This document shows, one piece after another, positions 18,453 through 50,200 of a stretch of 64,000 nucleotides of DNA. The notes below the pieces were generated by a model, which saw only the letters and a list, made by a program, of their open reading frames with translations, ran no database searches and was not told the DNA's origin. The position numbers were made by a program, and so were the translations under genes. Numbering within the stretch: the first letter of the stretch is position 1; each line of letters opens with the position of its first letter. The DNA is from Geosiphon pyriformis uo1 (Eukaryota; Fungi; Glomeromycota), in assembly GCA_016748015.1 (NCBI GenBank), contig JAAOMT010000222.1, positions 685,924 through 749,923 of the forward strand, given 5' to 3'.

Positions 18453-18669
18453 AATAAAGGGATTATTTGTAAGAGAAATGTTGAGGTACAGCAAGTGAAA
18501 AACAAAAAACTACTTTCAAAATATGACTTTTTTTCAGGAATTTGAGACAAAGGAGAGTATTATTTTTTTTTTTATATTTAATATTTATAAAATTTTTAAA
18601 ACTTTAATATATCTGGTATTTTTAAAATTTTTTTTGGTATTTTTAAAATTTCTAATATTATGTTATTTT

Positions 18670-19015
18670 TTTTATTAATTTAATAAGTAGAATCTAAATA
18701 CAAATTAATATAATATATTAAATTAAGTGATTTAAATTAAATATAAATCATGTATTTATTATATATAACTAGTTATTTAAGCTAATTAAAACAATACTAC
18801 TTCTTTATATAAATAAAAATAAAAAGACACAAAATATATATACTAAAACTAATATTTAAAGTCTTTGTAATACTAAGCAATTTAATTATACTCCTTAATA
18901 ATACATTCAAAAAACTGTTAACAGAGAAAAATACTAAGCCATTTAGTAGAATAAAATTTTTTTTTTATAATTATCTAATATTTAAAGCAAATAAACCAAA
19001 TCTTGCTATTATTTT
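18670..19015 (-). mobile_element. Old, AT-eroded LINE 3'-end fragment
   Basis: Colinear with the LINE ORF2 C-terminus and 3' UTR at 10760-11110 once C->T/G->A decay is allowed for. Confidence 0.6.
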
Positions 19016-24249: not shown

Positions 24250-25126
24250 TGTTACTCATAGAAATATAGGAAATATATTAGCATGATTATTAGCCAATCA
24301 GAAGTAGGTGTAGTAAATGTGGAATTCCAAGATTCCTCTCAGGAATTGCAGGATTCCAGGAATTTTAGAATTTCCTGATGAGGAATTGCAGGATTCCAGA
24401 ATTCCAGAATTTCTCTCAAAGAAATCGCAGGATTCCAGGAATTTCAGGATTCTTGTCGTGAAGAATTAAGGAATTGAGGAATCTCAATTATGTATATATA
24501 GCAGTAGAATTAGAAGCTAAAAAGACAGATTTCTTAGTTTTAGATTTAATTTAAGCAACTCTTCAATTTACAATCATCTAATAAATAATTATTTGTTATC
24601 TCAAACCTATTTTCATTATCAATACTTCATGTTGATAATAATTGATACTTAACCACACTGGAACAATAGCTCTTGATTATGGTTATTGACAGAATACTAA
24701 CTTGCAAATTGCCTTGGCTTATTTCTTTTCTTTCTTTATTTTATTTTATTTTCTTTATTTTCTTGTTTTGATTTTATTGTTGTTTACTAACTTTATTGAA
24801 GATTAATGCACAGGGCACTGATGTCAGAATAAACGTGACTGGTAAAAGACCAGAAATAAGAGTAGAACACTCAATTGAAGATAGCTTACCAGGAGGAATA
24901 CCGGCCATCAAGCTGAGAAAGAAATTGACAAAACTGTGGTTTTGGAAAGCTATGAATAAAACTATCATCATTGAATCTCTGTCCATTATACAAAGAACTC
25001 AACCAAACCCTTCAGATACAAAATTTTCAGATACCAAACCTTCAGATTATTGACAACAAGAATAGCTTTGAACACCAGGTTACAGGTTTGTATTTAATTC
25101 AACACCAGAAATTGTCACCTGTAACA
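24250..25126 (+). repeat. 5' LTR of A, with a GAATTCCAG-motif array and a TATA-like TATATATA
   Basis: TGTTA..TAACA; direct repeat of 43378-44238, which has fewer motif units. Confidence 0.95.
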
Positions 25127-28100: not shown

Positions 28101-29178
28101 ATCATGAAGTGATAACAGCCAAAGCAAACCAGCCACTGAATGAAGTTGAGAAGAAAAGGGAAAAGGAAAGAAACAGGAAGAGGAACCAAAACAAACCACC
28201 TTCTTTACTCATATTCCATATGCGACACCACCTTAAAATACTTACCGTCGACCCAAACTTATATGCATCAGTTGTGGCAAGAAACTGTCAACAATGGGTG
28301 CATGCTGTAGTAAGAACAAAAAATAGACAACAGCAACTGAGTACTACTGTCACCCATGCATCCTTGAATGCAATGGACAACTGCCAAAAATAGGAAAATG
28401 GGACAGTACCTTGTGTTTAACTTGTGGAGATACTCTCTTAGATGAAGGGATATGGAAAAACATTCCTAGAAGAGAAGAAGCATGCGACAAGACATGTCAA
28501 TACACCATCCTGATCAATGACTGGGTACGAAAGGGAACTCCCATTGACAATGCCTGGAAGCGAGCATTAAGACATCTAGAAGAATACCCACATGATGAAG
28601 ATGAGATCTGAAGAATGGCATATACTATGTTAGAAGACACTACAACAGAGGAGCTGAGAGAAATTAAAAACAACCCACTATCTCTATTTGAGCCCGAATA
28701 TGTCCAAACCTTTGATGTCTTCGGCAACATTAAAGATGATTCAGAGAAATTTCATGAGCACTACCAGTGACTAGCACCCACAAAAAAAGAACAAAAAGAG
28801 CGCTTAGCACAGCTAAACACCTGGCTATGTGACCACTGTTTAATTCCATGTGACTTTCAATATTGTAATGAGTGTGATCTCATTTACAATCCACCACCAT
28901 GCATGATCTACACAATCTCTGAAGAGAAAAAACCAATCAGTGATTGTGCATCAGAATCAGAATTGCCAATCAATCACGATTCAAACTCTGACAATGACGA
29001 TGACAACAATGGTTTAAGCTCCATTCAAAATAGCAATGACAATGACAATGATTCCAACTCAGATCCAAACTCTAATACAAACTATGAATAATATATTGCA
29101 CTACCAGATCTCTCCAAAGAACAGGAGTTGAAATGGTATAGTGACAATGGGAAAGGTATCATGCCAGAACACGTGCAT

Positions 29179-29553
29179 GATACTGATGCAGAGTTTGATC
29201 TGAGGTATCCAAGAAAAGAAGCCATCAAATTGGAACCACATTTGTGCACCTGCATTGATCTGAAAATAGCACTGGAAATTTTGGCAACAACAATGGTTCA
29301 ATTAGCATCTAGGAGTAGTTTAGCAAAAAAAAAGATTAATATAAGAGGAGGAATAATTGACGTGGGATATGTAGGAAATATTATCACTATGCTACAAAAT
29401 GACTCAGAAAAGGCCTATATAATAGAGTCCAATAAAAAGATAACACAGGCAATATTTCTGCCTCTGGTTAGAGTAGCTCAGTTGGTATCAGTAGGAAAGA
29501 GAGAGAAATTAGGAATAACAGCAAGAGGAATACAGGGATTTGGATCAACGGGT
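29179..29553 (+). other. dUTPase domain in A pol (equivalent in B at 34509-34877)
   Basis: All five dUTPase motifs: DAEFDL, SRSS, GIIDVGYVG, TQAI, RGIQGFGSTG. Confidence 0.93.
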
Positions 29554-31111
29554 AGAATAGATGTACCAGTTAATATGGCAGAGGAAGAAATTGTTGGCCA
29601 AAGAGAAATTATCTCAACTGGTCAAGCTATTTCCATTCCACCATATAGCCAGTACATGCTAGCAATAGAAAAGAAAAAAAAGAAGCAAGAACAGATTTTT
29701 GAGGCTGAAACAAACCTTTGTGAATCAGGAAAGATTGGACTGAGCAATCTTCACATACTAGCCAAAAGCTATAGCCACATAAAAATTCCCATTTACAACA
29801 ACACTGACAATGTCATCAACATACCAGAAGGAACTATCATCAAATATTTAACCACAGAAATAGAAGACCAACCACCAAACTTCATTCCAGACTTTCCACA
29901 GCTTTGTGGATATGTTAATATAACATCACAAATGATATACGAACAAAGCGAATATTATTTGCTTCAACCAGAATAATTGGAACAAATGAACATGGAAAAC
30001 TTGAATCCACTCTAAAGTATGCAACTTAAGATGTTGCTCAACAATTTTAATAACATTTTTGCCAGCAAAAATGAGTTTGGCAGATGTTACTAGACGAAAT
30101 TAGAGATATTATTTAGCATAAAATTATCTTATAAATCCTATCATTAATTAGCATATATTATCATTTCAAATTATCACTTATTACATTAGCAAAATGTCCA
30201 AAATTATCATTTAATTAATAACCCAATTTGTACACAACACAAATGTAACCTAATTGCGATGATCAAATTATACAATACCCCGAACTATGTAATATTCAAA
30301 AGTTTGCCAAAATTTGTAGAAATTTGCCAAAATAATTGATAGTTCACTAAAATATCTAATAGTTCACAGAAATAACTTGTAGTTCACCGAAATGTATCTT
30401 TAGTTCAGCGAAATTGTAGAAAATAGCAAAGTTCAAGTTCATAGAATAGTGTTACGACAAGTTGTATAAAAGAAGAGCATCTCTTTTCGAGAAAATGTAT
30501 TTTACTTTAGATTTATTACTTAAAAACTATTCCTACGTATACAAAAAGAAATAAATATCAAATAATTTAAAAAACCAAATTCTTTAATTATTGCACTTGG
30601 AAAATCCCCAAAACCCAACTAAAATTTTGAAATTGATTAGCTATCAATTTCAGTAAACTGTTAGTAACTCCAGGCCTGGATAGAAAAACGTTTCCCTTGA
30701 TAAAATTCTATTTCTTTTACATTTCTTTTATTTTTTTTTCTTTTCTTATTACAATCATTAGGGTAGCTTACAGATAAGATTCTTGTAGAAGAGTTGACTT
30801 TCACAGCAAAGTAACTACACATTTTTAGTGAGCTTCCAGACAAGCAATTCCTGGAAAAGAGTTGAAATTTACTACAATGTAACTACATAAAGCAACTGGC
30901 ACAGAATTGGCCATTCCACTCATAAGCCCAGCAAGTTCAAATTATAGGAGATAATTTGAAAATAAATTCAGTTACTGAAGGTCCAACTACTTTCTGGAAA
31001 CGTGAATTCACAACAAATCAACATTAACAACATTTAAGAAAAGAGACCAAAAACTTCTGGTAACATTTAGTGCTCTCCCACGGAAATAACACAGCAACAA
31101 CAAAATTCAAA

Positions 31112-34100
31112 GTGGCGACCACACCAGATGCAACAACTCTAAAGTATTACCAATCAATTTACACCCACTGCAAGCAAAGATTCAACATTCTAGACGGAAT
31201 TGAAGTTGTCAAGAAATCAGTATACCAATATATTGAAAACCACATTAACAATTATCTTTTTGGAAATTACAATATCTCAGAAGTTAGAAGCAACTTTTAC
31301 AATAATTTAGCACACTATTTACAGTTGGAAACTAAAGACCTTAACAGTGAAACACTTGCCACTTACTTTTACGAACTTAATTTTAACATTATCAAATACT
31401 GTAAAAAAACATATCCAGTGCAGTTTTAATACTCTATTAATTTTGAATCGGAAACAGAAACAAACAAAAAAGGCAAAAACAAATTGAAACAATACTCAAA
31501 AACCACCCCAAATACTCCAATATTATCAAAAACAACTGCCAACCATTTACAAACACCTGAACAAGAAACCAGTTCAAAACTTCCACTTACTATCACATCT
31601 TTTCCAGCTTCACTTGCACAAGCACAAATGCTTAATTCACCCTTAAATCAATTTGTAAGACCAGAAGATTTTACATCACTCAGAAGTCCCATCAGACAAC
31701 AAAAACCCCTTCAAACTAGTTTCAATCTCCTTGACTTTCTAGCTGAAAATCAAAGTGAACACTCTGAGACAGCAGTGAATGAAGAAAACAAACCTGAAAT
31801 ATCTGAAGAAGAATCAATAAACAATGAAAACAAAGAAGATGAAATAACAACATACATCGCAAAAATCCCTGAATTTAATGGAAAAGACATTGAGACCAGT
31901 TCCCAAGAATGGCTTGACCAAGTTACTAAAGCTGAAGATGCAAATAAATGGAATGCTGCCAGAATGTTAAGAACAATTCTTTATTTTCTCAAAGGAACAG
32001 CAGGAGAATGGTTTGAAAACTTGGCTGCCCCATTCAATGATTGGAATGCTTTCAAAGCAGCCTTCCTTGAACAGTTTACTGACAATAATACCTCCATTAC
32101 CCTTTGTAATTGTTTTCGAAATATCAAACAAGAACCCTCTGAATCTGTTATGACTTATATTAGGAAATTCAACAAACTTCTCAGATGAATTCGCCAACTT
32201 GAAACAAACAATTATTATTCCGATGCTTAAATCTTGGATCAATTTATCGCTGGTCTAAAAGATGAACTAATTAAAAAGGTTCGCCCACATGCACCAGAAG
32301 ATTTAAACTCTGCCATACAGCATGTGAAAAGATATGAAATGGCCATGGAAGAGGCCAATTGCACAAAACTTGTAAATTTGGCAATTGAAGAAACCAGCTC
32401 AGCAACTGAAAAAAAAATTGACCAACTCACAAAAAAAGTTGAAAACTATTTCACCAATCAACAACAACAGCAACCCCAAAGATATCAACCACCCCAAAGA
32501 CAAAATCAAAATAACTTTGCACCACTTTCTAATAATCAGCCTCAGAATTGCCATTACTGTAGAATCTCTGGTCACTGGAAAAGAGATTGCAGAAAGCTAC
32601 AATGAGACCAACAAAATAGGAGTAATCAATGTTACTCTCCACCACAGCAATCTTATTATTAACCACCACCACCAGCTTACTATTTACCAAGATCTCAATA
32701 CCAAAATAACTATTATCAGCCTGCCCCACAGCCAATCCAACAGCAATACCAACAACCACCTATACAACATTATCAAGTACCTGTTCGAAGACTAATTACA
32801 CAAAATCAATTCACACCACAAAACCAATACCAAGTAAACAACAATAGAATCAGTTCGAACAACCAATTAATTCTCCGAAATTCCACTCAACCAAGACCCA
32901 ACTACTACCACACTCAACCCAGTTATTTAACAATGCCAGAAAAACAGAATTTTCACCTCGGAAGGTAGAGCTGCAGCACAACAACAAAACCCTTCCTATA
33001 CTCCCACCACAATCCCACCAGCCAGAATCACTGAAAATGCTAACCTTTCAGATATATTTCCTTTTGAGTTCAAAGCAAATGAGTCACCATTCCTGCTTAG
33101 CAATACAACTGCCAATGAACAAAAAGCAATTATGGCTATGTACACTGAAGCAGAAGTCGAAAGAAAGACAATTTGCTTGATCCTAAACAGTAGATCCACC
33201 GGAAGTATTATCACCTACCAGTTAATGCAACAGTTGAAGAGAAATGTTGACTGACCAGCTCAAACAGTAATCGTTACTACTGATGGCATGAAAAAGACCC
33301 CAGTAGGAGAAATTAACAATTTTCTGTTTACACTTGATGGAATCACTATTCCAGTCAAAGTTCTTATAATGGATGCACCCCAGTACCAAGCTCTCATCAG
33401 AAATGATTGGCTTCAAAAAGCCAATGCTAATCTGAATTGGGAAACACAAGAGTTAACAATCTCCTACCAAGGACAACACGCCCGGGTACCTGCCACTTGT
33501 GGTACATTCAACAAACACTCTAAAAAAGTCCCGGCTTTTGAATTCGAACTGGAAGAGGAAAAACCCCTCATTGAAACATTTATGGCTCTTGGATCAATGT
33601 CCAACTGGGCCAATAAAACAGAACAAGAACATTTTATTCCACACTCTGAACTCGAAACCTCTGGATGGAATATCCCTTACTCAAAATCTGAACCAAGGAA
33701 ACAATGCCCCTATATTTTTCTTAAATATAAGGACTGCCACAAGAAACTATTATCAATGGGAGCCTGCATTTTACCTAAAGAAGAATATGAAAATCATACT
33801 TGTTATTACTGTAAGGCTTGCTACAGAAAACAATGGGGCCATCTAATAAAAAAAAGTGGAAAATAGGACAACACCCCTTGTTTGACTTGTGGAGATATGC
33901 TACCAGAAGAATACAATTGAATTGATGTAGCCATGAGAGGAGGAGTCTGTGATCAGACCTGCCAATATGCTTTATCAATTTCAGAAAAAGTAAAAAGAGG
34001 AACACTCTTTAATGCAGCATACAACAGTGCTCTCAACAAACTTTATCACTACCTCCATGATGCCGAAATGATTTTCGACCTAGAAATGGCATTAATTAAT

Positions 34101-36718
34101 GGAGCTACCAAAGAAAATGTTCGTCAAATGAAGGAAGCAGAATACATTGAATACACTATGGAATTAGCTGAATTCAATTACAAAGACGAAGTAAAAGTCT
34201 ATCACCAAATTGCAAGTTATACCTACCCAACTCAAGAAGCTCAAATTCAATGATTAGAGCAAATGAACATTAGGCTATGTGAAAAATGCATCATGTCTTG
34301 TGATAAACAGTGATGTCCTGAATGCTATGTTCTTAGTATCTCCTTGCCCAGTGAAAATGATAAGAACAAAATTGAATTTGGAGAACTTGAAGCAATGGAA
34401 GAAATTGAAACAACACCCATCTACCTTATTGAAAATCAGCCTGCCTTACAACTTAAATACTTCAACAACAATAGACAAGGAATAAAACCCAAAAAAGCAC
34501 ACGAAATTGATGCTGGATATGACCTAAGATATCCAGACAAGGATACTCTTGTTCTTAAACCCAAATCTCTCACAAAAATTAACCTCAAAATTGCACTCAA
34601 AATCTCACCAGGAGCAATGGTTCAAATCATCTCCCAGTCCTCTCTGGCAAGCAAAGGAATTAATGTCAGAGGAGGAATAATCAATGCTAGATATACTGGA
34701 GACATTACAGTGATGCTTCAAAATGAAACTAACAAACTATTCAAGATCGAACATGCTGAAAAAATTGTCCAAGCTATTTACCTACTCCTAATCAACATTT
34801 CGGGTTTGCAACTAGTCAATCAAAGAGAACAATTAGGAAAAAGTGATAGAGGAACCCAAGATTTTGGTTCAACTGGACGATTCACAGTTTCAGTTAATAT
34901 AGCTCTTAACACACAGAACAAATCCCACCAGATTCTTAGACTTTCACAACCAATTATCATTTCACCCTTTAGAAAACATCTGGAAATCTACATCTGCCTA
35001 AAGTCAACAACCACACAACAAATTTTTAAGTCCAATGAACAAGTCTGCTTGGAACATAATATTTTGATCCTAAACATTTATATTCTAGAAGGAACAAAGA
35101 AAGTCCAAGTTACTTTTTACAACCCCAATAATTACCTCATAATTTTATTAAATAATTTAGAAATTGGAGTTATTCACAGTAATATATTTCAACAAAAATT
35201 ATCCCAAACAGTTCCCGATTTTTCTGAAATTATTGGACATTCACTACCAAAAATCAACCCAAACCTCAGCCTGAAAACTACTATGTTGTCATGGAAAAAC
35301 TATCTCGAATCAACATGGGACAACTTGAATCACAACAACAGACCCAGCTCAAAGAGCTAATTGCAGAATTTGCTGATATCTTCGCTGAAAACAACAATGA
35401 CTTAGGAAGAACCGATTTGGTTCAACACCAAATTTATACAGGAGATGCCAAACCAAGAAGACAACAAGCATATCGAGCTGCTTCAGAAAGCCACCAATTC
35501 ATCTGAGAAGAAGTACAATGAATGCTTAACAATGGGCTTATCCAACTTTCCATGAGTCCTTGGGCTTTACCTGTAATGCTAGTCAAAAAGAAAAATGGAA
35601 AGATCTGATTTTGTGTTGACTATCAACAACTCAACAGTATTACAATTAGAAATGCCTACCTTCTTCCCCAGATTAATGACATGTTAGATGCCCTTGGAAA
35701 ATCCAAATACTTTTCAACACTAGATTTAGAAAGCAGTTACTGGCAAGTTGCTATGGATCCCAAAGATTGCCCCAAAACAGCATTCACCACCCAAGACAGA
35801 AATTACAAGTTCAATGTAATGCCTTTTGGATTATGCAATGCACTAGCAACATTTTAGAGATTAATAGATGTTGTGTACCAAGGACTTCTTTAGAAGTCAG
35901 TAGTTGTTTATCTTGACAATACTGATGTTTATTCTCCATTGTTCGAATTACACTTAAAACACCTGCAAGAAGTTTTTCAACGATTACAAAAAGCAAGACT
36001 AAAACTTAACATTGAAAAATGCTACTTTGGAAAAACAAGCTTGGCCTTTCTTGGGCATATCGTTAGTAAAGATAGAATCAAACTGGACCCTGGAAAAATC
36101 AGCATTGTTAAAAACTTCAAAACTCCTTGAAACACTACAGAACTAAGAGGATTCATAGGATTAGCATCCTACTATTGGAAGTTTATCAAAGGATTCTCAG
36201 AAATTGCAAAACCCCTCAACCAGCTCACCACCAAAAACGTTGAATACAAATGGACTACTGAACACCAAAAAGCTTTTGGAATTCTCAAGGAAAAACTGAC
36301 AACAGCTCCAATTCTCACCTACCTGGATTTCAGCAACTGATTTCGATTAGCTACAGATGCTTCGTATACTGCCTTTGGTGCCATCTTATCACAACTAGAT
36401 AACAATGGAAATGAGTGAGTAATTGCTTATGCTAACAGAACATTAAAACCAGCTGAGAAAAACTACCCTGCCACAGAACTAGAAACAGCAGCCATAATTT
36501 GGGCCCTACACCACTTCAACTTTTATCTCAGGCCTAAAGAATTCGATATTATCACTGATAATATTGGACTCAAATGGCTTCAGAACAAAAATACTCAGCT
36601 GAATGCAAAACAAACCCAATAGACAGAATTTCTAGCAAACTATTGATACATAGTACATCACAAACCAGGAAAACTCCACACCAATGTTGACTGTCTCTCT
36701 AGAATGAGACAAGATTAG
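31112..36718 (+). pseudogene. Element B gag-pol (gag, PR, Cys-rich, dUTPase, RT, RNase H)
   Basis: CHYCRISGHWKRDC, LILNSRSTGS, DAGYDL, RGTQDFGSTG, MPFGLCNA, YLDN, TDAS, ELETAAI. Stops, plus two small frameshifts (~32955, ~35270) that look like decay. Confidence 0.9.
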
Positions 36719-36769
36719 AAAACACAAAAACCAATACTCAACTTAACCAACCAAAAAAGCCAACAAACA

Positions 36770-38155
36770 ATAAATTCAGAAAACTACAACAATCTCAAAC
36801 AATATTTGGAAACATTAACAATTCCAACAGATTGGTCTCCAGATGAAAAACATCGACTACAACTACAAGCCAAACAATATTTTTTACACAACAACATTAT
36901 TTATCATCGAAATTTCAAAAACCCAAACAAATCACTTAGATTAATACAAGAACAGAAAAAAGAGACCATATTATACAACATGCACTCAGATCCTTCATTA
37001 GCACATTTCGGAAAAGATAGCACCACCCAAAAAACACTAGAATACTACTTTTGGCCTCAAATGAGAAAAGACATTCACAAATATGTCAAATCTTGTGATA
37101 GTTGTCAAAGAAGAGAAGGAACACACTCTATTGAACCATTAAATCCAATCAAAGTTGGACAACTCTTTGACTAAGTTGGTATCGATTTAATCGGACCATT
37201 ATCTATTACCACTCAAGGAAACCGTTATATTGCAGTAGCTGTAGACTATCTTACTAAATGGCCCAAAGCCAGAGCCATTCAACGAGCAGATGCAAAATCA
37301 GTAGCAAATTTCATCTATGAAGACATTATTTGTAGACATGGATGTTCAATTGAACTTTTATCTGATCAGGGAACACACTTTGTAAACAACCTGATACAAG
37401 AAATTTGCGAATGATTCAATGTCAAAAGACCTCTGTCTTCGTCCTACCATCCACAAACAAATGGACTTGTGGAATGTTTTAACAGAACATTGTGTAAGTC
37501 ATTAGCCAAAGTCTCAACTGATTTTGAACAAGAGTGGGATATCTTTATTCCATCAGTGTTGCTAGCATACAGAACACTAAAACAAGATACCACAAAACAC
37601 ACACCATTTGATTTAACTTATGGAAGAACAGCAACATTACCAATTAGTTTCACAGTGGAAACATACCCAGCACAACCAATTGATGAAAACAATTTCTAAG
37701 AAATGCTTTAGCAAAGAGCCTACACTCTGCTTAGTACATTAGAAAAAAAACAATGAATAGCAGCCACCCATATTGAACATTCCCAAGCTCGACAAAAAGA
37801 ATGGCATGATAACAAATTGCCTCCAGTTACCAATGAATTTAAAATCGGAAACAAAGTTCTCTTACACAGAACTAAAGCTAAAAAACAATGGAGTGGAAAA
37901 TTTGAAAATAAATGGAATGGACCATTTTTTATCCATGAAGTCCTAGGCAACGGATCATACAAGCTAAGACTTGATGACAAAATCCTAGCAAAAGTTGCAC
38001 ATGGAGATCATTTGAAACACTATCATTTCAGAAACAATCCTGAATCATTAATTCCACAAATTGGTACACATTCCCCTTTAGTCAATTTCGAAGATATTCC
38101 CTGAAACTTAGAACCAATAGTTGTCATTAAACAATCTTCCAACCTGAACACTTAA
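36770..38155 (+). pseudogene. Element B integrase (separate ORF)
   Basis: HHCC (MH..AHFG..CDSCQ), GIDL, SDQGTHF, YHPQTNGLVE, GPF module (WNGPF). No chromodomain. Confidence 0.9.
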
Positions 38156-38261
38156 ATTAATTTTACTAGTTATTCCCTTATAATTTAGAAACAATCAAAA
38201 CAAAAATAACATAAAAACCCATACACCAAAAATAATTTTCTTTTATTTTAAATCTCTTATA

Positions 38262-38938
38262 ATGACTATTCCTCAAAACATTCAACAATTATCCCAAAAA
38301 CTAATGTTAACTTTAAAAACAATACCCGAATTATCCATTACTGTTACTGGAAACCACATTAATTATATCCAAACAGAAGTAGTTACAAATTTAGCCCCAA
38401 ATTCACGAAAATATCACCCATATAAGAAGAACACAAGAAGTTATTCTGGAATTCATCTGCCAAAACTTTTAAAGCTTGCTTTAAGAGAAAACCTAATGCT
38501 CACTTCAATTAATATTCCACCAAATGCTACAATTCAACAAAGATTTCAACTGTGTCTCAATGAGGAAAACACTGAATATCCTCCAATTTATAGATATTTC
38601 TACATTAGAAAAACACTCTACGAATAGAAACTGGAACTTACAACAGCAAACCTCACAAAAGAAGTTATTCAGAAACAACTCCACAACAAATTTAAGACAA
38701 CAGCTGGACCAACAAATAGTCACTACAAGCTCAGAGCTGCTCTTAGACTTTATGACCTATTCCACATCTGTGAAAATGTCCTACAAAACCCAATTTTATG
38801 ACCTTTGAAGATTCAATACATTGGAAAGCTCACAGAACTGAAATTTCAACAATTTTCAGACCAAATTTCTTCAATAATTTTGGATTACTATCTGGAAATT
38901 AGAGACAGTACTTGGACTTTGAAGAAGCTCAGTCTTGA
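38262..38938 (+). pseudogene. Element B ORF3, unknown ~225-aa protein
   Basis: ATG at 38262; aligns with A ORF3; ends LDFEEAQS-TGA at the PPT after a late frameshift. Confidence 0.7.
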
Positions 38939-41297
38939 GGAGAAAGTTATGTTACCAAACAAAATTAGAGATATTATTTAGCATAAAATTATCTTATAAA
39001 TCCTATCATTAATTAGCATATATTATCGTTTCAAATTATCACTTATTACATTAGCAAAATGTCCAAAATTATCATTTAATTAATAACCCAATTTGTATAC
39101 AACACAAATGTAACCTAATTGCAATGATCAAATCATGCAATACCGCAAACTATGTAATATTCAAAAGTTTGCCAAAATTTGTAGAAATTTGCTGAAATAA
39201 TTGATAGTTCACCAAAATATCTAATAGTTTGCAGAAATAACTTGTAGTTCACCGAAATGTATCTTTAGTTCAGCGAAATTGTAGAAAATAGCAAAGTTCA
39301 AGTTCATAGAATAGTGTTATGACAAGTTGTATAAAAGAAGAGCATCTTTCTTCGAGAAAATGTATCTTACTTTAGATTTATCACATAAAAACCATTCCTA
39401 TGTACACAAAAAGAAATAAATATCAAATAATTCAAAAAACCAAATTCTTTAATTATTGCACTTGGAAAATCCCCAAAACCCAACTAACGTTTTGAAATTG
39501 ATTAACTACCAATTTCAGTAAACTGTTAGTGACTCCAGGCCTGGATAGAAAAACGTTTCCCTTGATAAAATCCTATTTCTTTTACATTTCTTTTATTTCT
39601 TTTTTTTTCTTATTACAATCATTAGGGTAGCCTACAGACGAGATTCCTGTAGAAGAGTTGACTTTCACAGCAAAGTAACTACACATTTTTAGTGAGCTTC
39701 CAGATGAGCAATTCCTGGGAAAGAGTTGACGTTTACTACAATGTAACTACATAAAGCAACTGACATGGAATTGGCCATTCCACTCATAAGCCCAGCAAGT
39801 TCAAATTATAGGAGATAATTTGAAGATAAATTCAGTTACTGAAGGTCCAACTACTTCCTGAAAACATGAATTCACAACAAATCAATATTAACAACATTTA
39901 AGAAAAGAGACCAAAAACCTCCAGTAATACTGAACTGACATCATCCAGCATCAGATCAAGACTGGAGATGCAATGCTAATTAAACAAAGAGCATACAGAG
40001 TACTACCAGCTAGCCATGAAATTATCCAGCAAGAGATAAACCAAATGCTTGACAATAGGCTAATTCAGCCATCAATGAGCCCATGGTTGTCACCAATGGT
40101 ACTTGTTTGTAAAAAAAATGGAAAAATCTGCTTTTGTGTGAATTATAGAAAACTCAATAGAGTAACTCATAGAAATAGCTACCTCACTCCATGGATCCAA
40201 GAATTATTTGATGTTTTCAGTGGAAACAAATGGTTTTCAACATTAGACCTGAACAGTGGTTACTAACAAGTAGTTATGGATCCAGCCAACAAAAAAAAGA
40301 TGGCATTTACCACCAGAGAAGGGAATTTTGAATTTGAAGTAATACCATTTGGCTTAACCAATGCACCAGCCACTTTCCAAAGGCTAATGGAAATTGTTTA
40401 TACTGGCTTATTGTGGAAATCAGTAGTTGTATACTTGGACAACACCAATGTGTTCTCAAAAACATTCGATGATCATCTTTATCATCTTCAACAAGTGTTC
40501 AAAAGACTAAAAAGAGCAGGACTAAAGTTAAATACAACAAAGTGCTTCTTTGGTAAGACAGAACTAAAATTCTTGGGACACATAGTCAGCAAAGACGGCA
40601 TCAAAACGGATTCAGAGAAAATAGAGATAGTAAAGAACTTTCTAGTACCAACCAATGTGACTGAATTGAAATCATTCTTGGGATTTGCAAGCTATTATTG
40701 ATGCTTTATAAAGAACTTTTCAAAGATAGCTCAACCACTCAATAATCTGCAAATCAAGAATATCAAATATGAATGGACAGAAAGTCAACAAGAAGCTTTT
40801 GATATTTTGAAAAGAAAGCTTATTCAAGCTCCAGTACTGATCTATTCAGATCACAACAAACTATTCATTATTACCACCAATGCATCAGGCCAAGCATTGG
40901 GAGCAGTACTATCTCAGAAGGAACCAGATGGTAGAAAACATTCAGTAGCTTATGCCAGCCGAGATCTAACACCAGCTGAAAAGAACTATGGAATACTAGA
41001 ACTAGAACATTTGGCAATCTATTGGGCAGTTATAAAGTGGAATGAATACTTAAGCCAAAAGTTTGATATATACACAGATTATAAAGGGTTAACATCACTT
41101 CAAAAGCAAAAATTTGATGACAGCTGCCAATTCAAATGGAAAATGGCATTCTCACAATATACTTATACTATACACTATAAGAAAAGAAAAGATAACAGAA
41201 ATGCTGACGGTTTGTTGTGAATAAGACAAATCTAAAAACATTTCAAACCCAAAAATATAACAAAACCAGAACAATACCAACGAAAATACAACAAAAG

Positions 41298-42680
41298 ATG
41301 AACATACAAAAATATTAACAAATGTAACATTATATAAACACTCAACAGTTCAAGAAGAATTTATCTCAAACAGAATGAAAGAGTATCAAACAACAATCAA
41401 AATATTTTATCACTTACCAAAATATACTTTATCAGAAAAATAGAAGGGATCCAGATCAACCAACCAAAGTAATTACAGAGCCAGAAAAAGAGACAATATT
41501 ATTCAACATGCACTCAAATCTAATAGCAGAACATTTTCACAAAGAAGCAACCATGGAAAAAACCAGAAAGAGATACTATTGGCCATTAATGTATCCAAAC
41601 ATTATCTAATATGTTCAAAATTGTGATGTTTGTCAGCAAAGAGGAGGTACAAAACCCAGTGAACCATTAAGACCAATCAAAATGTGACAACCATTCAACC
41701 ATATTGGAATTGATCTAGTCAAATTATTAACAATTACCAGAAAAGAAAACAGGTACATAGTAGTAGTCATAGACTATCTCACTAAATGGCCAGAGGTGAA
41801 AGCAATTCAAAGAGCAGATGCAGAATCTGTTGCTAAATTTGTTCATCAAAATTTAATTTGTTGACACAAATGTCCAAAGGAATTATTATCAGACTAAAGA
41901 ACTCATTTTGTGAACAAAACATTAACAGAATTGAGCCAAAGATTCGGAATTAAGAGACCACTATCATTACCATACCATCCACAAACCAACGGATTAGTCA
42001 AAAGATTTAACAGAACATTGTGTGAAGCAATAGCTAAGCTCAGCCAAGAAAACCAGAATGATTGGGACATGTTGATATTATCAGTACTATTTGCTTATCG
42101 AACAATAAAACAAAACACTACACAAACAACACCATTTGAATTAGTATATGATAGAACAGCAACATTACTAGTGGAGATAGAGGTCAACACATATCTAACT
42201 AAACCAATAACAGAAGAGAATTTCTAAGAAACATTGTTAAGAAAAACATATGACTTAATAGAAACATTGGAAAACAAACGAAGAAGAGCAGCTGATAACA
42301 TATAAAAGTCACAAGAGAAACAAAAAGAAATACATGATAATCAACTACCAGACAAACCAGTTGAATTCAAGATTGGAGACAAAGTACTCTTATATTGTAC
42401 CAAAGTGGAAAAACAATGGAATGGAAAATTTGACCCCAAATAGGACAAACCATTTCACATAGAAGAAATTCTAGGAAATAAAGCTTATAAATTAAGACTG
42501 GACAACAAAATTTTAACCAAAGCAGCACATAGAAATTGACTGAAACCATACTACAACACCATATTATCATCCATCAGTAATATTCTACAATTAGGAGTAC
42601 AGAGAATACTAGTCCAACCAGATCAGATTCCACAAGATCTGGAACCAATCATTATTATTGACAACAACACATCAAATTGA
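41298..42680 (+). pseudogene. Element A integrase (separate ORF)
   Basis: Own ATG (MNIQKY), in a different frame from RH. MH..EHFH..CDVCQ, GIDL, YHPQTNGLVKRFNRTL, GPF-like C-terminus. Confidence 0.9.
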
Positions 42681-42734
42681 TCCATCAAAAGAATATATAA
42701 AGACATGGTAGACGTGACAGAAAATATCAGAAAA

Positions 42735-43364
42735 ATGTAAATTACAGACAATATTCACTTATTAGCATAACAACTCTTTCAATTGATTCAACACCAGAAA
42801 ATAGAGATTACAATCAATTAACAAACCATTCGATATCAAGATACTAGAAAGACATTGCAATCCAGAACACAGAAGAAAACTGAAAATACTGTGGAAAAAA
42901 TCATTGCGAAAGTAAAATTAACAATAAGAGAGTTAACAAAAAAGTCACTATATCAAAAGTTGACTAAAGAAACTTGGAATTGATGAATACAACAATTTTT
43001 ACGAAACTATTGTTATTTTTACTTGGGACAACATGTAAATATCCAGAATTTATATACGGATAAAACAAAGCAATTATTTAACAAAAGAATACTACAACAA
43101 TTAGAACATTTTGTGAGAAAGAACAACTTATCTACACAGACCCGAGCTATATACCGAATACACATAGCATTTCAGAATAGACCAAAAATATTACTCAACA
43201 AAGCAATAGATATGGTTACCAGTAATTAATGAGGAAAGATCACCAATACTCAATTTGAAAAATTATAGACCCAAATAACACAAGTAATTCTCGAAAACAA
43301 AATCTAGGAAATACTTCAAGAGGGGGAATTAAACGAGTTGAATTTTGATAGAGCTCAATATTAA
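42735..43364 (+). pseudogene. Element A ORF3, unknown ~210-aa protein
   Basis: One frame from ATG 42735 to NFDRAQY-TAA abutting the PPT. Internal stops are transition-type. Homologous to B ORF3 and to C at ~45213-45870. Confidence 0.72.
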
Positions 43365-43377
43365 AAGAAGGGAATAA

Positions 43378-44238
43378 TATTACTCATAGAAATATAGGAA
43401 ATATATTAGCATGATTATTAGCCAATCAGAAGTAGGCATAGTAAATGTGGAGTTCCAGGATTCCTCTCAGGAATTTCAGGATTCCCCGACGAAGAATTAC
43501 AGAATTCCAGAATTCCAGAATTCCTCTCAAAGGAATCGCAAGATTCCAAAAATTCCAGGATTTCTGTTATGAAAAATTAAAGAATTGAGAAATCTCAATT
43601 ATGTATATATAGCAGCAGGATTAGAAGCTAAAAAGACAGACCTCTTAGTTTTAGATTTAATCTAAGCAACTCTCCAATTTACAATTATCTAATAAATAAC
43701 TATTTGTTATCTCAAACCCATTTTCACTATCAACACTTCATGTTGATAATAATTGATACTTAACTATACTGGAACAATAGCTCTTAATCATGGCTATTGA
43801 CAGAATACTAACTTGTAAATTGCCTTGGCTTATTTCTTTTTTTTCTTTATTTTATTTTTTTTTCTTTTTTTTCTTGCTTTGATTTTATTGTTGTTTACTA
43901 ATTCTATTGAGGATTAACATGTGGGGCACTGATGTCAAGATAAATGTAACTGGTAAAAGACCCAGAAATAAGAGTAGAACACTTAATTGAGGATAGCTTA
44001 CTAGGAGGAATACCGACCATCAAGCTAAGAAAAAAATCGACAAAACTGCAGTTTTGGGAAGCTATAAATAAAACTATCACTATTGAATCTCTGTCTATTA
44101 TACAAAGAACTCAACCAAACCCTTCAGATACAAAACCTTCAAATACCAAACCTTCAGATTATCAACAATGAGAATAGCTTTGAGCACCAAGTTATGGGTT
44201 TGTATTTAATTTAACACCAGAAATTGTTACCTGTAACA
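43378..44238 (+). repeat. 3' LTR of A
   Basis: TATTA (decayed TGTTA)..TAACA; direct repeat of 24250-25126. Confidence 0.95.
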
Positions 44239-47200
44239 ACATCTTAAATAAAAATTAAATATTCGAAAACCAAATTCTTTGATTATTACACTTGAAATTC
44301 TCTCAACACAACTAACATTTTGAAATTGATTAGCTATCAATTTCAGTAATCTGTTAGTAACTCCAGGTCTAAATAAAAAACATTTTTCTTAACACAATTT
44401 TATTTTTTTTATATTTTTTTTATATTTTTTATATTTTTTTATTTAAATTATTAGGGTAGCCTACAAACAAGATTTCTGTAGAAAAGTTGACTTTTATAGC
44501 AAAATAACTACACATTTTTAGTGGGCTTTCAGATGAGCAATTTCTGAAAAAAAGTTGATATTTATTACAACATAACTACACAAAGTAACTGGCACAGAAT
44601 TGGCCATTCCACTTATAAGCCCAACAGTTCAAATTATAAGAAATAATTTGAAGATAAATTCAGTTATTAGAGATTCAACTGCTTCCAGAAAACGCGAAAT
44701 TAACAACAGACAAACATTAACAACATTCAAGAAAAAAAACCAAAAACCTCTGGTAGCAATGGTTAAGTATTAAATTATATTAACATGGAGTGTTAATAGT
44801 GTAGAATAAATTAATATTTCTTTAATTAAACAATAATAAAATAAATTTGAGTAATAATAAATGTTTTATTAATATAAATATAATTCTATTTCAAGTTATA
44901 AAAAACTATCTTTTAAAGAAAAGAGTATTGTTGTTCTAAACTGAATTGTCTTTTTTTGTTTTTAATACTCTTACTATATATACATAATTTGTATTATACA
45001 AGATTCCTTAAAATTTTTTAATTTCTTTGACAGAAATTCTGGAATTTTAAAATTTTGAAATTCTGAAATTTTACAATTCTTCAAGAAAAATCCTGTAATT
45101 TTTTAAGAGAAATCTTGGAATTTTTTTTTTTACTATGCTTATTTCTAATTTGTTATTTTATCTACTTATTATAATTTCTAATTTATATAAGTAATATTAT
45201 TCTTTTTTTTTAATATTGAGCTCAATTGAAATCTTTTAAATCTCTTAAATTTTTTTTTTGGATTAGCACCATAATTTTTTTCTTGAAAATTACTTGGACA
45301 ATATTGGTCTACAATTCTTCAAATTGGACATTAGTAATTTTTTTCAATTAATTGATAGTTACTGTATTTATTGTTGAGTATAGCAGTATTTTTGAATGGT
45401 TTTGAAACTCTGTTTGTAACCAGTATATTGCTTGTGCCTATATAAATAGATTGGTTTTTTTCATAAATTATTTAAGTTGTTGTAATATTATTATGTTAAA
45501 TATTTGTCTTGTTTTATCTGTATATAAGTTTTGAATATTGAGTTTTTCTCTCAAATAATAATAGTAAAAGTTTCTTTGAAATTGTTGTGTCTATTATTTT
45601 CAACTTTTTTTATTAACTTCTTATATAGTACTGTTATTTTTAATGTTTCTATGAATATTTTTACTTTTGTTATTATATTTTTTACTATATTTTTATGTCT
45701 ATGTATACTCTATATTATATTTTATATTGATATTTTAGTTTTTTTTCTGTGTTTTTATATTGAATAGTTTGTTAATTAATTGTAATATTCATGTTCAGTT
45801 TTTGATATTTAATTAGTTAGAATAACTGTTAGACTAGTAAGTGAATATTGTTAGTAATTTCCTTTTTTTTTTGCTTTTATTGTATATATTGGTTCTTTAT
45901 ATACTGTTTTGGTAGATTAATTTGACATGTTTGTGTTAATGATAATGATTGGTTTCAGATCTTATAAAATTTTATTTGGTTAGATTAGGATTTATTGTAT
46001 TTTCAGTTGTAAAATATTATTAATAAATAATAATACTATATTTTGATATGGTTTTAGTCAATTACTATATGTTGTTTTAGCTAAAATTTTGTTGTTTTAT
46101 CTTAACTTATATGCTCTATTTTTTAGAATTTCTTTAATGTAAAATAAACTGTTTTATTTGGAGTTAAATTTTCTATTCCATTGTTTTTTTACTTTGGTAT
46201 AACATAAAAGTACTTTGCTTCTAATTCTAAATTTGGCTAGTTTATTTGGTAACTGGTTATTATGTTATTTTTTTTGTCTTTTTTGTAACTTTTGTATATT
46301 ATTAACTGCTTTTTGTCTTTTGTTTTTTAATGTTTCTATTAAGTTATATGTTCTTTTTAGCAATTTTTCTTGAAAATTGGCTTCTGTTATTGGTTCAGTT
46401 GGATATGTATTGATATTTATTTTAACTGATAATATTGCTGTTCTATTATAAATTAGTTTAAATAATATTGTTTGTATAGTATTTTGTATTATTGTCTGAT
46501 AAGCAAATAATATTAATAGTATAAATAAATTCCATTTATCTTGGTTTTTTTGGCTGATTTTGGCTATCACTTTACACAATGTTCTATTGAATCTTTCAAC
46601 TAAGCTATTTTGTTTATGGATAATATATGGATAATATAATAATAATAATGGTTTTTTAATTTTGAATCTTTGATTTAATTCTGTTAATGTTCTGTTTACA
46701 AAGTAAATTTTTTGGTCTAATAGCAATTTTTTTGGACATTTATATTGACAAATTAAATTTTGGTAAACGAATTTGGCTATAGATTTTACATTTGTTTTTT
46801 GAATTGCTTTTGTTTTTGGCCATTTTGTAAGATAGTTTATAGCTACTGCTATATATTAATTGTTTTTACTGGTTATAATTAATAATTCAATTAAGTTAAT
46901 TCCAATTTAATCAAATAGTTGTTTTACTTTAATTGGTCTTAATAGTCTACTGAGTATTGTTCCTCCTTTTTTTTGACAAGCATCACAATTTTGAACATAT
47001 TAAATAATGTTTGGATATATTAATGGCCAATAATATTTTTTTCTGGTTTTTTTTATGTTTGTTTTTTTATAAAAATATTCTGCTGTTGAATCTAAATGCA
47101 TATTGTACAATATTGTTTCTTTCTCTGATTCTGTAATTACTCTAAATAGTTGATCTGAATTCTTTTTGTTTTTCCAATATAGTATATTTTGGTAAGTAAT

Positions 47201-50200
47201 AAAATATTTTGATTGTTGTTTTATGCTGTGTTGTTCTTTTTGAAATAATTTCTTTTTAAACTGTTAAGTATTAATATAATATTAAAATTGTTAATATTTT
47301 TGTGTATTCATTTTTTGTTATATTTTTGAATTGAAATATTTAGATTTGTCTTATTTGTGATAAGTTATCAACATTTCCATTTTTTTTCTCTTTTTATAAT
47401 ATATAGTATAATTAAATAGTAATAGTTTTATTTTTTGTATGATAATTGTCTTCAAATTTTTGCTTCTTGATTGATGTCAATTCTTTGTAATCAATGTATA
47501 TATCAAACTTTTGGCTTAAATATTTTTTCTATTTGATAACAGCCCAATAGATAGCTAAATATTCTAATGCTGGAGTTCTATAATTCTTCTTGACTGAACT
47601 TAAACTTTGGCTGGCATATGCTATTGAATGTTTTTATCTATTAGCTCCTAATGCTTGGCTGGATACATTAATAATAATGATAAATAGCTTGCTATAATTT
47701 GAATAAATTAATACTAAAGCTTAAATAAGTTTTTTCTATAATATATTAAAAGTTTTTTGTTGGTTTTTAGTCTATTTGTATTTAGTGTTCTTAACTTAAA
47801 GTTAATAAAGTAATTGAGTCAGTTTAGATAAGTTTTGGATAAAGTAGTGGTAGTATTCAGTAAATTCCAAAAATGTTCTTAGTTCTATTAAGTTTGTTGG
47901 TACTAAAAAGTTTTTAACTATTTCGATTTTATTGGAATCTGTTTTGATGCCATTTTTGCTTACAACATATTCCAAAAACTTGAATTTGGTTTTTACTAAT
48001 AAAGTATTTGGTTGTATTTATTTTTAATCTGGTTTTTTTTAATTTTTTAAACACTTATTAAAGATAATGAAGATGATTATCAAATATTTTAAAGAATACA
48101 TTGGTATTATTTAAGTTGACTATTATTGATTTCCATAATAATTCAGTATAAATAATTTTCATTAACTATTGGAAAGTAGTTAAAGCATTGGTTAAGCTAA
48201 ATAGCATAACTTCAAATTCAAAATTCTCTTTTCTGATAGTAAATACTGTCTTTTTTTTGTTAGCTAGATTTATAATCACTTGTCAATAACTACTGTTTAA
48301 GTCCAATATTCAAAACTATTTCTTTTTTTTAAAAGCATTAAATAGTTTTTGGATCTGTGGAATTGAATAGTTATTTCTACAAATAACATTATTGAGTTTT
48401 TAGTAGTCTACACAAAAACAAATCTTTTTATTTTTTTCTATTCAAGTATTATTAGTAAAAACTATAGACTTATTAATAGTTAAATTAATTTATTGTCTAA
48501 CATATGATTAATTTCTTGTCAGATGATTTTATAACTAATAGATAGTATTCTGTATGCTTTTTATTTGATTGGTATTGCATTCTCAGTTTTTATTTGGTAT
48601 TGAATAATGTCAATTTTGCCAAATTTATTTTTACTTGCAAAGATTTCAATGTAATTATTGAGTAATATTTTAAGTTGTATACATTAAAATAGATACAAAT
48701 TTCTCAAGTTTATTTGTTTTAACTGTTTTGGTTATAGCAAATAATATTTTTCTTGTTTATATATGATTTGTAATATGATATTTACATATCTACAAAATTG
48801 TAAAAAATCTGGAATGGTAGTAAATACTTGATTCTCCACTTTAGTGTTTAAGTATTCAATAATAATTCTACTTAGTATTTCTATAGAGTTTTTAGTTGTA
48901 TTGTATATTGAAATCTTAATATGTTTATGATTTTTGGCTAATATATAGAAATTGGTAATAGCAATTTCTCCTGATTTACAAATGATGACTTTTACTTTAA
49001 AAATTTGGGATTGATTTTTCACATTTTTTTTTATAGTTAACATATACTGATTATATGGTAAAATAGAAATAAATTAATTAATAAAGATAATTTCTCCTTT
49101 ATTAATTGTTTTTTCTTTTGCTATATTAACTAATATTTTTATTTTATCTGTGAATTCAAATCCACTTATTTCTCTTGCTATTATTTTTAACTCTCTTTTT
49201 ATTGTCATTGATACTAACTAAGTTATTTTTACTAAAAGCAAAAATATTGTCTGTGCTATCTTTTTATTTAGTTCAATAATATATTTTTTTGGAATTATTT
49301 TGTAGTATTGCAATAATATTTTTTACATATCTTGTATCAATTATTTCTCCTCTGATATTAATCCCTTTTTTTACTAAATTAAATCTAAAGACTAATTGAA
49401 TTATTGTTATTGCCAGAATTTTCAATGCTACTTTTAAATCTATGTTGATATGCAAATAAAATTCTAATCTAATGGCAGTTTTTTTAGAATATTTAAGATC
49501 AAATCTTATATTAGTATTATGTATACATTTTGGCATGATATTCTTATTATTATTGCTAAACTATTTAAGTTTCTGCTTTTGTGAAAAATCTGGAAGTGTG
49601 ATATATTGTTTGAGATTGAAATTGTTATTGTTATTGTTGCTGTCATTGCAAACAGAGTTGGAATCATTGTTGTTATTATTATTAGAGTCTGAATTGCAAT
49701 TGAATTTCAATTCTGATTTTAATATATATTTGCTAATTGGTTTTTTTTCTTTACAAATTGAATAAATTATGCATGATAGTAGATTATAGATAAGATCACA
49801 ATTATTACAATATTCAAAATTACTGAAAATTAGACAGTATTTATATAGTCTCATATTCAATTGTTTTAATCTTTGTTTTTGCTTTTTTCTAGTTAGTACT
49901 AGATCTTAGTAGTGCTTATAAAATTGTTTGGAATTATTCGTAATATTAATGAAAATGTTTAGATTAGAAATAAGAACTGTTTCAACAGATTTTGATAAGT
50001 TGTTTTTGATTTTCAATATTTCATTGAGTTAAGTACCTTTAACTTTGACACTTATTATTTATTAGATCTTGTTTTTATTATGTAGATAATTATTTAAATA
50101 TAAAGTGCTTGGTTTTATACAGCATTAAAAAATGTTTTTTTGCTCATCCAGTTTCTAATAATAATTATATATTAATATGAAGTGTTATATGTTCCTCTTT

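Follow-up and report, generated by a model that had tools for sequence, protein, structure and literature searches.

Integrase is encoded by a gene of its own in a Ty3/Gypsy-type lineage of LTR retrotransposons represented by four copies, elements A to D, in the window (the whole 64,000-nucleotide stretch analyzed here): the gag-pol frame closes at a fixed stop codon after RNase H, a short spacer follows, and integrase (IN) begins at its own start codon. We regard it as all but certain that this stop and this separate gene are a genuine layout and not decay. The fuller statement, which adds to them that IN would be made by termination and reinitiation across the spacer, is read from sequence, and we hold the case for it to be evenly balanced.

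Pfam matches in the window follow the order gag-PR-(dUT)-RT-RH-IN, with Gypsy-type RT, RNase H and H2C2/rve integrase, and PBS-like and PPT-like stretches provide candidate priming sites (Table 1). Element B is nested within pol of element A, which keeps a single frame over 1611 codons from gag to dUTPase, likewise across RT-RH and across IN, the frame shift falling at the junction spacer; the Cys-rich region of A had no Pfam match. Decay by C-to-T and G-to-A changes is heavy across the window. The initial annotation spoke of four divergent families; by nucleotide identity there are two, A with C (72% over 3764 nt) and B with D (67% over 1763 nt), with differences that are mostly transitions in both pairs, whereas the layout shared by four copies stands. 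Protein identity between A and B is 54% in RT-RH and 50% in IN.

Table 1. Coordinates of the retrotransposon features in the window
Feature	Position	Strand	Remarks
Element A 5' LTR	24250..25126	+	followed by PBS-like stretch at 25129; 4-bp target duplication, one mismatch
Element A gag - protease - Cys-rich region - dUTPase	25144..29976	+	single frame with scattered nonsense changes; Pfam Retrotrans_gag, Asp_protease, dUTPase
Element A RT - RNase H	39934..41235	+	single frame; ends with TAA 41233-41235
Element A spacer	41236..41297	+	62 nt; A or C 52/62; no ATG; no predicted fold
Element A integrase gene, own ATG (aligned part)	41298..42632	+	
Element A ORF3	42705..43349	+	~215 aa; 20% identity to element B ORF3; no Pfam family above cut-off
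Element A 3' LTR	43378..44238	+	polypurine tract upstream, about 43363-43374
Element B 5' LTR	30085..31065	+	4-bp target duplication, one mismatch
Element B gag - protease - dUTPase - RT - RNase H	31430..36718	+	decayed; ends with TAG 36716-36718
Element B spacer	36719..36769	+	51 nt; A or C 46/51; no ATG; no predicted fold
Element B integrase gene (H2C2, rve, SH3-like)	36770..38104	+	first codon ATA here
Element B ORF3	38262..38948	+	~229 aa; no Pfam family
Element B 3' LTR	38950..39929	+	52 substitutions in 979 columns relative to 5' LTR, 48 of them transitions
Element C RT - RNase H	47340..48611	-	family A, more decayed; ends with TAA 47342-47340
Element C spacer	47312..47339	-	28 nt; probably shortened by deletion
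Element C integrase gene, ATG 47311	46043..47311	-	
Element D RT - RNase H	19606..20964	-	family B, heavily decayed; ends with TAA 19608-19606
Element D spacer	19538..19605	-	68 nt
Element D integrase start (ATG 19537) and N-terminal part	19012..19537	-	

The junction stop occupies the same aligned codon in A, B, C and D, a few residues past the last conserved RNase H motif; its positions, the four spacer lengths and the IN start codons (ATG in A, C and D, ATA in B) proved to be as the initial annotation had reported them. All four copies have A at -3 of the IN start. The spacers lie in frames 2, 0, 1 and 2 in A, B, C and D, respectively, with only B in frame. The spacer of B is the A/C-richest part of its pol-IN region, its content being equalled by 2 of 2640 scan windows; that of A is equalled by 15 of 2637, with the maximum on the spacer itself. 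The short spacer of C aligns as an apparent deletion relative to A and would thus be weak evidence for natural length variation.

The heavy decay, the in-frame spacer of B and an in-frame nonsense change after RNase H in a distant fused element (L066) are what one would expect if a Gln codon had turned into a stop and the linker had slipped out of frame in dead copies, a reading that we find barely credible. Decay rates are too low for it: the share of Gln codons possibly decayed to TAA or TAG is at most 0.038 in RT-RH of A and at most 0.094 in that of B, so that a shared junction stop is more than chance. Reads from a single DNA run that holds many copies, and is possibly the window's own sample, show the stop to be fixed in other family-A copies, with no other letter at 3% or more at this position (1303 contigs), and C and G positions near it are decayed by 7-13% in the same reads. 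The A integrase ATG is kept in about 92% of read depth, one-base indels within the A spacer reach 18% and 13% of local depth, and no variant falls on the B stop among the best 40 of 60 variant rows. The suspicion that ATA in B is a decayed ATG was well founded: 91% of the depth at 36772 (60467 of 66443) reads G, and ATG is thus the first IN codon in most family-B copies of this run. The invariance of the A stop in reads and the split in 31 of 31 close loci, intact relatives among those that share the layout, together refute the decay reading.

These relatives belong to a set of 79 soil-metagenome loci, and the close named relatives are from Rhizophagus irregularis. A stop precedes IN in every close locus whose contig includes the RNase H end (31/31), whereas RNase H and IN are fused in 15 of 18 distant loci. 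Intact relatives have the layout gag-PR-RT-RH / IN / ORF3, and their open frames reach about 1600 codons; of the proposed ancestral arrangement gag-PR-Cys-dUT-RT-RH / IN / ORF3, the split is upheld, but dUTPase, for which the 79 loci gave no match, is not general. The three best RT-RH protein matches extend 2 residues past the RNase H motif and no further, four R. irregularis gene models from the same cluster have the same end, and IN homologues have Met-Asp at the aligned first column in 5 of 6 cases. A search of viral contigs gave 19 pattern matches, with no relative among them. In trees built from database matches only, few of them named, and without curated references or an outgroup, IN sequences form a 59-row clade (support 97) that contains all 25 DNA-verified split rows, three window rows and no fused row. 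In the RT trees, the fused protein P0181 adjoins two proteins that end after RNase H, and the union of two split RT subclades is without support in the IQ-TREE run; a single clade for split RTs is not rejected (p-AU 0.64).

Fungal introns have lengths comparable to these spacers, and a fused Pol could in principle be restored by spacer splicing, readthrough or ribosomal bypass. Among the 21 relative loci with clean spacers (48-102 nt; frames 8/5/8), 8 are in frame and 8 permit some in-frame GT-AG join. Yet these joins lie at unrelated sites, for which reason we reject a shared intron, and 13 of the 21 spacers have none; nor does an in-frame GT-AG rescue exist in any of the four window copies, so the splicing that the initial annotation named as a way to fuse RH and IN is not borne out. 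All three frames are seen, in-frame stops lie a few codons upstream of the IN ATG in many relative loci, the R. irregularis gene models terminate at the stop, and a fusion would make the conserved Met in its initiation context unnecessary. Restored fusion is therefore very improbable.

We posit instead that ribosomes would terminate at the gag-pol stop, stay attached to the genomic RNA, scan through the short spacer, which is free of AUG, and start again at the IN ATG of full-length RNA in what is presumably a fungal (glomeromycete) host. The spacer could act as a cis signal, through its A/C-rich tract in the window and a sequence motif or hairpin in sister groups, and free IN may be packaged via genomic RNA or Gag binding, by analogy with foamy virus Pol. 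Reinitiation appears the likeliest mechanism; it has likewise been proposed for LINE-1 ORF2, where a 63-nt spacer would be crossed by scanning or looping (PMC5972666).

The 21 clean spacers contain 3 ATGs, where dinucleotide shuffles have 15.9 +/- 3.1 and none of 1000 had so few, although such counts overstate independence because the loci are related; the gaps between IN and ORF3 are not depleted (9 vs 10.9 in shuffles). In 48 loci, the IN start has A at -3 in 36 and G at +4 in 44. Where pol carries a tail of 270-360 aa past RNase H, the spacer still measures 62-93 nt, which argues that the IN start tracks the stop and not the RNase H domain. In 4 of the 48 loci the ATG overlaps the upstream stop or is at most 5 nt away from it, and in 9 the gap exceeds 110 nt, as counted by an automatic rule that takes in some damaged copies. 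AUG depletion and strong start context are equally compatible with a subgenomic mRNA. The wide gaps tell against reinitiation, whose viral form, in the account given in PMC5972666, spans short gaps only, up to 29 nt in pneumoviruses.

Three unrelated spacer types occupy the one junction position: unstructured, A/C-rich spacers in the window; a conserved sequence motif just 5' of the IN ATG, without a consensus fold, in the short-tail group; and, in one relative subgroup, a covarying hairpin of ~37 nt upstream of the IN start codon, every strong model match placing it 3-25 nt ahead of the ATG. The stability of the hairpin does not exceed that of shuffled sequences (z -0.08 and -0.26). Its model had no match in the window or in distant loci, its exact pattern none in viral contigs or prokaryote genomes, and the 13 loci scanned against Rfam matched no family, IRES or other, at E up to 5. 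A reinitiating ribosome would have to unwind any hairpin that lies between stop and start.

Alternatively, the separate IN gene could be translated from a subgenomic RNA whose 5' end arises from an internal promoter, cleavage or exonuclease stalling at a spacer structure. This reading, which we consider unlikely but worth serious attention, accommodates the AUG-free spacers, the strong start context and the motif or covarying hairpin just 5' of the ATG; ORF3 downstream likewise needs a translation route, and foamy virus Pol comes from a separate subgenomic transcript (PMC7828637). However, overlapping stop and start codons in sister loci leave no space for a noncoding signal, three unrelated spacer types are found at the one position, and the invariant U-G pair of the hairpin works on sense RNA only, which argues against a DNA promoter in that group.

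A-rich and CAA-rich sequences can act as translation enhancers, and the unstructured A/C-rich tracts of the window resemble them; together with the placement of the hairpin before the ATG, they lend something to the idea that the spacer works as an internal ribosome entry site of the genomic RNA, independent of upstream translation. Such a site would not account for a start codon that moves with the upstream stop, and with the negative Rfam result we judge it improbable. Still less probable is that IN, as a separate protein, comes from an RNA in which a leader close to the 5' LTR has been spliced to an acceptor site ahead of the IN ATG, the route taken by foamy virus pol and retroviral env. 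Element A has AG immediately before the ATG, and branch-point-like TGAC/TTAAC words are present in both relative motifs, but most short-tail loci lack AG before the ATG, and in 2 of 17 aligned loci the hairpin has CGG in place of CAG, its pairing partner having changed to match. Termination-reinitiation remains our preferred reading.

ORF3 encodes 137-149 aa in relatives, where it is predicted to be all-helical, and 215-229 aa in the window. A profile of the relatives' ORF3 matched 18 loci and not the window, and a profile-profile comparison of the two gave a probability of 0.4%, though their motifs look alike by eye. No env Pfam match was found in ORF3 of the window or relatives, and the elements are not env-bearing in the Errantivirus-like sense. 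Fold searches with Foldseek against PDB and viral structures gave no match at E 0.001; the best VIA score, Z 5.0 (rmsd 3.2, 79 aligned), is likewise no match, and Atlas scores were below 0.9.

Fusion within Pol is the presumed means by which LTR retroelements dose integrase and load it into the particle, and a clade without the RH-IN fusion needs another route for IN translation and packaging. Such a clade is a naturally occurring system in which polycistronic translation in fungi can be put to the test, and its short spacers are perhaps usable as expression tools. Annotators would take the stop for damage and the IN gene for a transposase, so that intact elements would be miscounted in mycorrhizal genomes. 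Literature searches that did not extend to Repbase or most subscription journals turned up no Gypsy lineage described as having IN in its own ORF, and an earlier description may exist. More tentatively, we may be looking at a large fungal LTR-retrotransposon clade with a three-gene RNA (gag-pol / integrase / ORF3) and uncatalogued spacer elements, the ~37-nt hairpin included, that would serve for restart or as an IN-packaging handle, and whose stand-alone YPYY-type IN gene might be a Ginger1 precursor; this wider picture is doubtful.

Among known systems, canonical Ty3/Gypsy elements share direct LTRs with TG...CA-type ends, 4-bp target duplications, PBS- and PPT-like sites and the gag-PR-(dUT)-RT-RH-IN order, and dUTPase between PR and RT is known from fungal and rotifer members (PMC6431247). 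Metaviridae pol is described as a single polyprotein cleaved by the protease (PMC3248453), whereas here IN has its own ORF, followed by a third, non-env ORF. Because the stop is fixed and IN has its own ATG, IN would not be released by the protease from one Pol, and the lineage is a derived variant of Ty3/Gypsy and not a canonical member.

LINE-1 likewise carries two long ORFs on one retroelement RNA, and its 63-nt spacer compares with 48-102 nt in the relatives. But LINE-1 and SART1 are non-LTR elements and victoriviruses and hypoviruses are RNA viruses, and in none is the downstream ORF an integrase. In SART1 and victoriviruses the stop and start sites overlap, as against 4 of 48 relative loci; the window, with stop and start 28-68 nt apart, does not show the overlapping or nearly adjoining stop and start of TURBS or other stop-restart systems. 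Foamy virus Pol is uncoupled from Gag and packaged via genomic RNA (PMC7828637), but its precursor, made from spliced RNA, still carries IN; here the break falls between RNase H and IN, and RT-RH is fused to Gag in intact full-length loci. In DIRS-type elements, the integration enzyme also occupies a separate ORF (bioRxiv 10.64898/2026.05.21.726589), but it is a tyrosine recombinase and not the DDE integrase of an LTR element.

Ginger1 encodes a stand-alone Gypsy-like integrase of ~400 aa with H2C2, DDE and GPY/F and a ~40-aa YPYY-type segment before the zinc finger (PMC2836005). The INs studied here have aromatic-Pro-aromatic-aromatic positions in the pre-zinc-finger segment, a likeness read by eye against Ginger1 as known from description only. 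No OTU/Ulp1 tail was seen on IN, and scans of four regions for the terminal inverted repeats of Ginger1 (40-270 bp) found no flanking inverted repeat above 23 nt. IN sits behind RT-RH inside LTRs, and a Ginger insertion was rejected on the lack of flanking inverted repeats and the presence of RT-RH directly upstream of IN in the window and 31 loci. The chain of events that links LTR elements and Ginger has been called unclear (PMC2836005), and the lineage described here bears on the traffic of DDE integrases between LTR elements and Ginger-type DNA transposons.

The AT-rich window holds nested, decayed retroelements, among them element A, which comprises gag, protease, a Cys-rich region, dUTPase, RT, RNase H and integrase (IN) and carries element B within it; C and D are minus-strand, more decayed kin of these two (nucleotide identity 72% for A/C and 67% for B/D). 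All four Ty3/Gypsy-type copies end their RNase H frame at one aligned codon, a spacer of 62 (A), 51 (B), 28 (C) or 68 nt (D) follows, and IN begins at an aligned start codon, ATG in A, C and D and ATA in B, exactly as the initial annotation described; every start has A at -3. The conserved layout it proposed stands, but the divergent families it counted reduce to two, because C and D are related to A and B.

Differences between LTR pairs are almost all transitions (48/52 in B, 82/86 in A), making conversion of a Gln codon to a stop in dead copies the obvious rival. Yet the share of Gln codons possibly turned to stop is at most 3.8% in the RT-RH region of A and 9.4% in that of B, and A keeps a single frame across each long coding block. 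Retention of the stop and the ATG among copies is supported by one public DNA run with many element copies, which may be the window's own sample: across 1303 contigs covering the A junction, none of the 16 variant positions at or above 3% falls in the stop codon, the G of the IN ATG is altered in 20192 of 260197 depth, and one-base spacer indels reach 18% and 13% of local depth; across 2102 contigs for B, position 36772 is G in 60467 of 66443 depth, and the stop is absent from the best 40 of 60 variant rows.

Relatives carry the same break. A metagenome scan seeded with IN homologues gave 79 loci (best 80 of 567 candidates, a sample skewed towards the split clade), which we divided by their IN identity to the window with a 40% threshold, set once a gap between 34% and 41% had become apparent. 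The RNase H end is present in 31 of 58 close loci, and all 31, a few of them damaged, stop before IN; it is present in 18 of 21 distant loci, 15 of them fused and three broken, one (L066) by the plain in-frame nonsense change that the decay reading invokes. The stop is not restricted to decayed copies, however: in L027 and L038 the gag-PR-RT-RH frame stays open for ~1610 codons before it ends at a stop, and IN is encoded separately behind it. Decay as the source of the stop is thus scarcely conceivable, and we hold it virtually certain that separation of IN from the RNase H frame is a real layout. Among these loci, L033 and L038 have IN-ORF3 upstream of another gag-pol on the contig, as in tandem copies or circularly permuted assemblies, and in L040, L041, L042, L045, L048 and L054 RNase H and IN are seemingly separated by an additional frame or a long insertion that runs up to the IN start.

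Proteins agree. The IN N-terminus of B, searched among longer proteins, matched six (337-432 aa), five with a Met-Asp start aligned to the window's Met. With A's RNase H as an independent query (best 120 of 288 matches examined), the best three RT-RH matches terminate two residues past the last RNase H motif; among the matches listed, most of the remaining top ones terminate within 25 residues of it, and those from plants and animals run on into IN. R. irregularis supplies 11 of the 15 proteins listed in the best match's cluster; its four members that reach the RNase H end all terminate there, and none contains IN. The window's host is presumably a glomeromycete. Some clade members in the P0008 and P0153 homologue clusters are labelled archaeal in MAG records, probably through binning contamination. 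In a sister group with the P0008, P0015, P0029 and P0037 clusters, the called RT-RH proteins have a constant length of 480-530 aa, which, with overlapping frames in L052, hints at a second split or a frameshift between PR and RT.

Coordinates of features in the window and in related loci
Feature	Location	Remarks
Element A LTRs	window 24250-25126 and 43378-44238	
Element B	window 30085-39929	inserted within pol of A
Cys-rich region	window 27949-29091 (+), and corresponding part of B	between protease and dUTPase; several CxxC pairs; no Pfam match
Decayed non-LTR retrotransposon	window 12370-18509 (-)	ORF1 with RRM and zinc-knuckle, then endonuclease and RNase H matches; adjoins B-type LTR
270-360 aa tail between RNase H and stop	L027:4360-5163; L018:3494-4438; L048:2032-5109	no Pfam match in L027, L018; NUDIX domain in L048
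Protease and RT frames overlapping out of phase	L052:178-2218	
Short-tail motif before IN start	L006:423-474	example from L002-L013
Long-tail hairpin	L033:2266-2312	example; loci L014, L016, L018, L020-L027, L031, L033, L034, L036, L038, L044, L046, L050, L055, L059, L060
ORF3	L013:1682-2125	example, ~145 aa; 17 other loci

Trees place the window with split elements. In an unrooted FastTree IN tree of 215 rows without curated references, from which 16 near-duplicate plant rows and similar ones had been dropped, one clade of 59 rows (support 97) unites every one of the 25 DNA-verified split rows with the three window rows, 19 proteins that begin at their own Met and 12 unclassified rows; it includes no fused row. 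Likewise unrooted and without curated references, RT trees of 157 and 47 rows group the window exclusively with split or RNase H-ending rows (support 98 and 95). A grouping of the two split RT subclades lacks support in the 47-row tree, and the fused, short-linker protein P0181 sits beside two RNase H-ending proteins; both speak against a single origin of the split. A constraint holding all 26 split rows together was not rejected (p-AU 0.64), and the constrained tree scored higher.

Once damaged, duplicate, overlapping and very long junctions were excluded, 21 of the 31 spacers remained, spanning 48-102 nt and all three frames (8/5/8). In-frame GT-AG rescue is available in eight, at unrelated sites, and in none of the four window copies; the spacer is not a shared intron, and a restored RNase H-IN fusion is extremely improbable. 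The 21 spacers contain three ATGs against 15.9 in shuffles (0/1000 as low), a depletion not seen in seven IN-to-ORF3 gaps. Of the 48 loci that include an IN start, 36 have A at -3 and 44 have G at +4. The closest long frame upstream terminates 6-110 nt short of the ATG in 27 loci, overlaps it or terminates within 5 nt in four, lies more than 110 nt away in nine and is missing from the contig in eight.

Spacer elements are of three kinds: an unstructured A/C tract in the window's families (no fold predicted in A, B or D), a conserved sequence motif in the short-tail group, for which no consensus fold was found, and, in the long-tail group, a hairpin of ~37 nt, 3-25 nt before the IN ATG, with two helices and a one-sided 11-12 nt bulge. 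In an alignment of 17 loci, 98% of cells are paired (at most 45% in slid registers), both partners vary in 6 of the 12 pairs, and such double changes fill 33 cells versus 9 in shuffles, counts flattered by deriving the structure from its own related test sequences. A model scan returned 23 strong matches, one per locus and all on the sense strand upstream of IN (17 being training rows), two weak ones and none in the window; the hairpin had no Rfam match, and its single-sequence stability did not exceed that of shuffles. Downstream of IN, relatives have a conserved ORF of 137-149 aa (10 loci read; profile matched 18), predicted to be all-helical (pLDDT 89); searches against Pfam, known folds and the Atlas gave no match. 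The ORF3s of the window exceed this ORF in length, share 20% identity with one another and could not be shown to be its homologues.

We give roughly even chances to expression of IN by termination-reinitiation with scanning, in which a ribosome would terminate at the RNase H stop, remain on the RNA, scan the AUG-poor spacer and reinitiate at the IN ATG. This reading is favored because the position of the start follows that of the stop regardless of pol tail length, the spacer avoids AUG, stop and start overlap in some sister loci, and LINE-1 offers a precedent with a 63-nt spacer (PMC5972666). A subgenomic RNA dedicated to IN is a possible but doubtful source, internal entry is unlikely, and a spliced IN mRNA is more unlikely still.

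The split elements have the LTRs, target duplication and domain order of Ty3/Gypsy elements but lack the single Pol polyprotein described in PMC3248453. The available text of mycorrhizal transposon papers gives class counts rather than this layout (PMC11952901; bioRxiv 10.1101/2021.03.30.436303), and that of other reports treats other splits (PMC5911963, PMC6431247, PMC5941688, bioRxiv 10.64898/2026.05.21.726589); within a literature scope that stops short of subscription journals, Repbase and supplements, we found no description of a split-IN Gypsy layout. By eye, the residue pattern in the IN of the split elements recalls the YPYY type of Ginger1 (PMC2836005); identity with Ginger1 was rejected, since no flanking inverted repeat longer than 23 nt turned up in the four regions scanned for TIRs and RT-RH adjoins IN. 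Foamy virus Pol (PMC7828637) provides a model for packaging an uncoupled enzyme, and by analogy free IN could be packaged through RNA or Gag.
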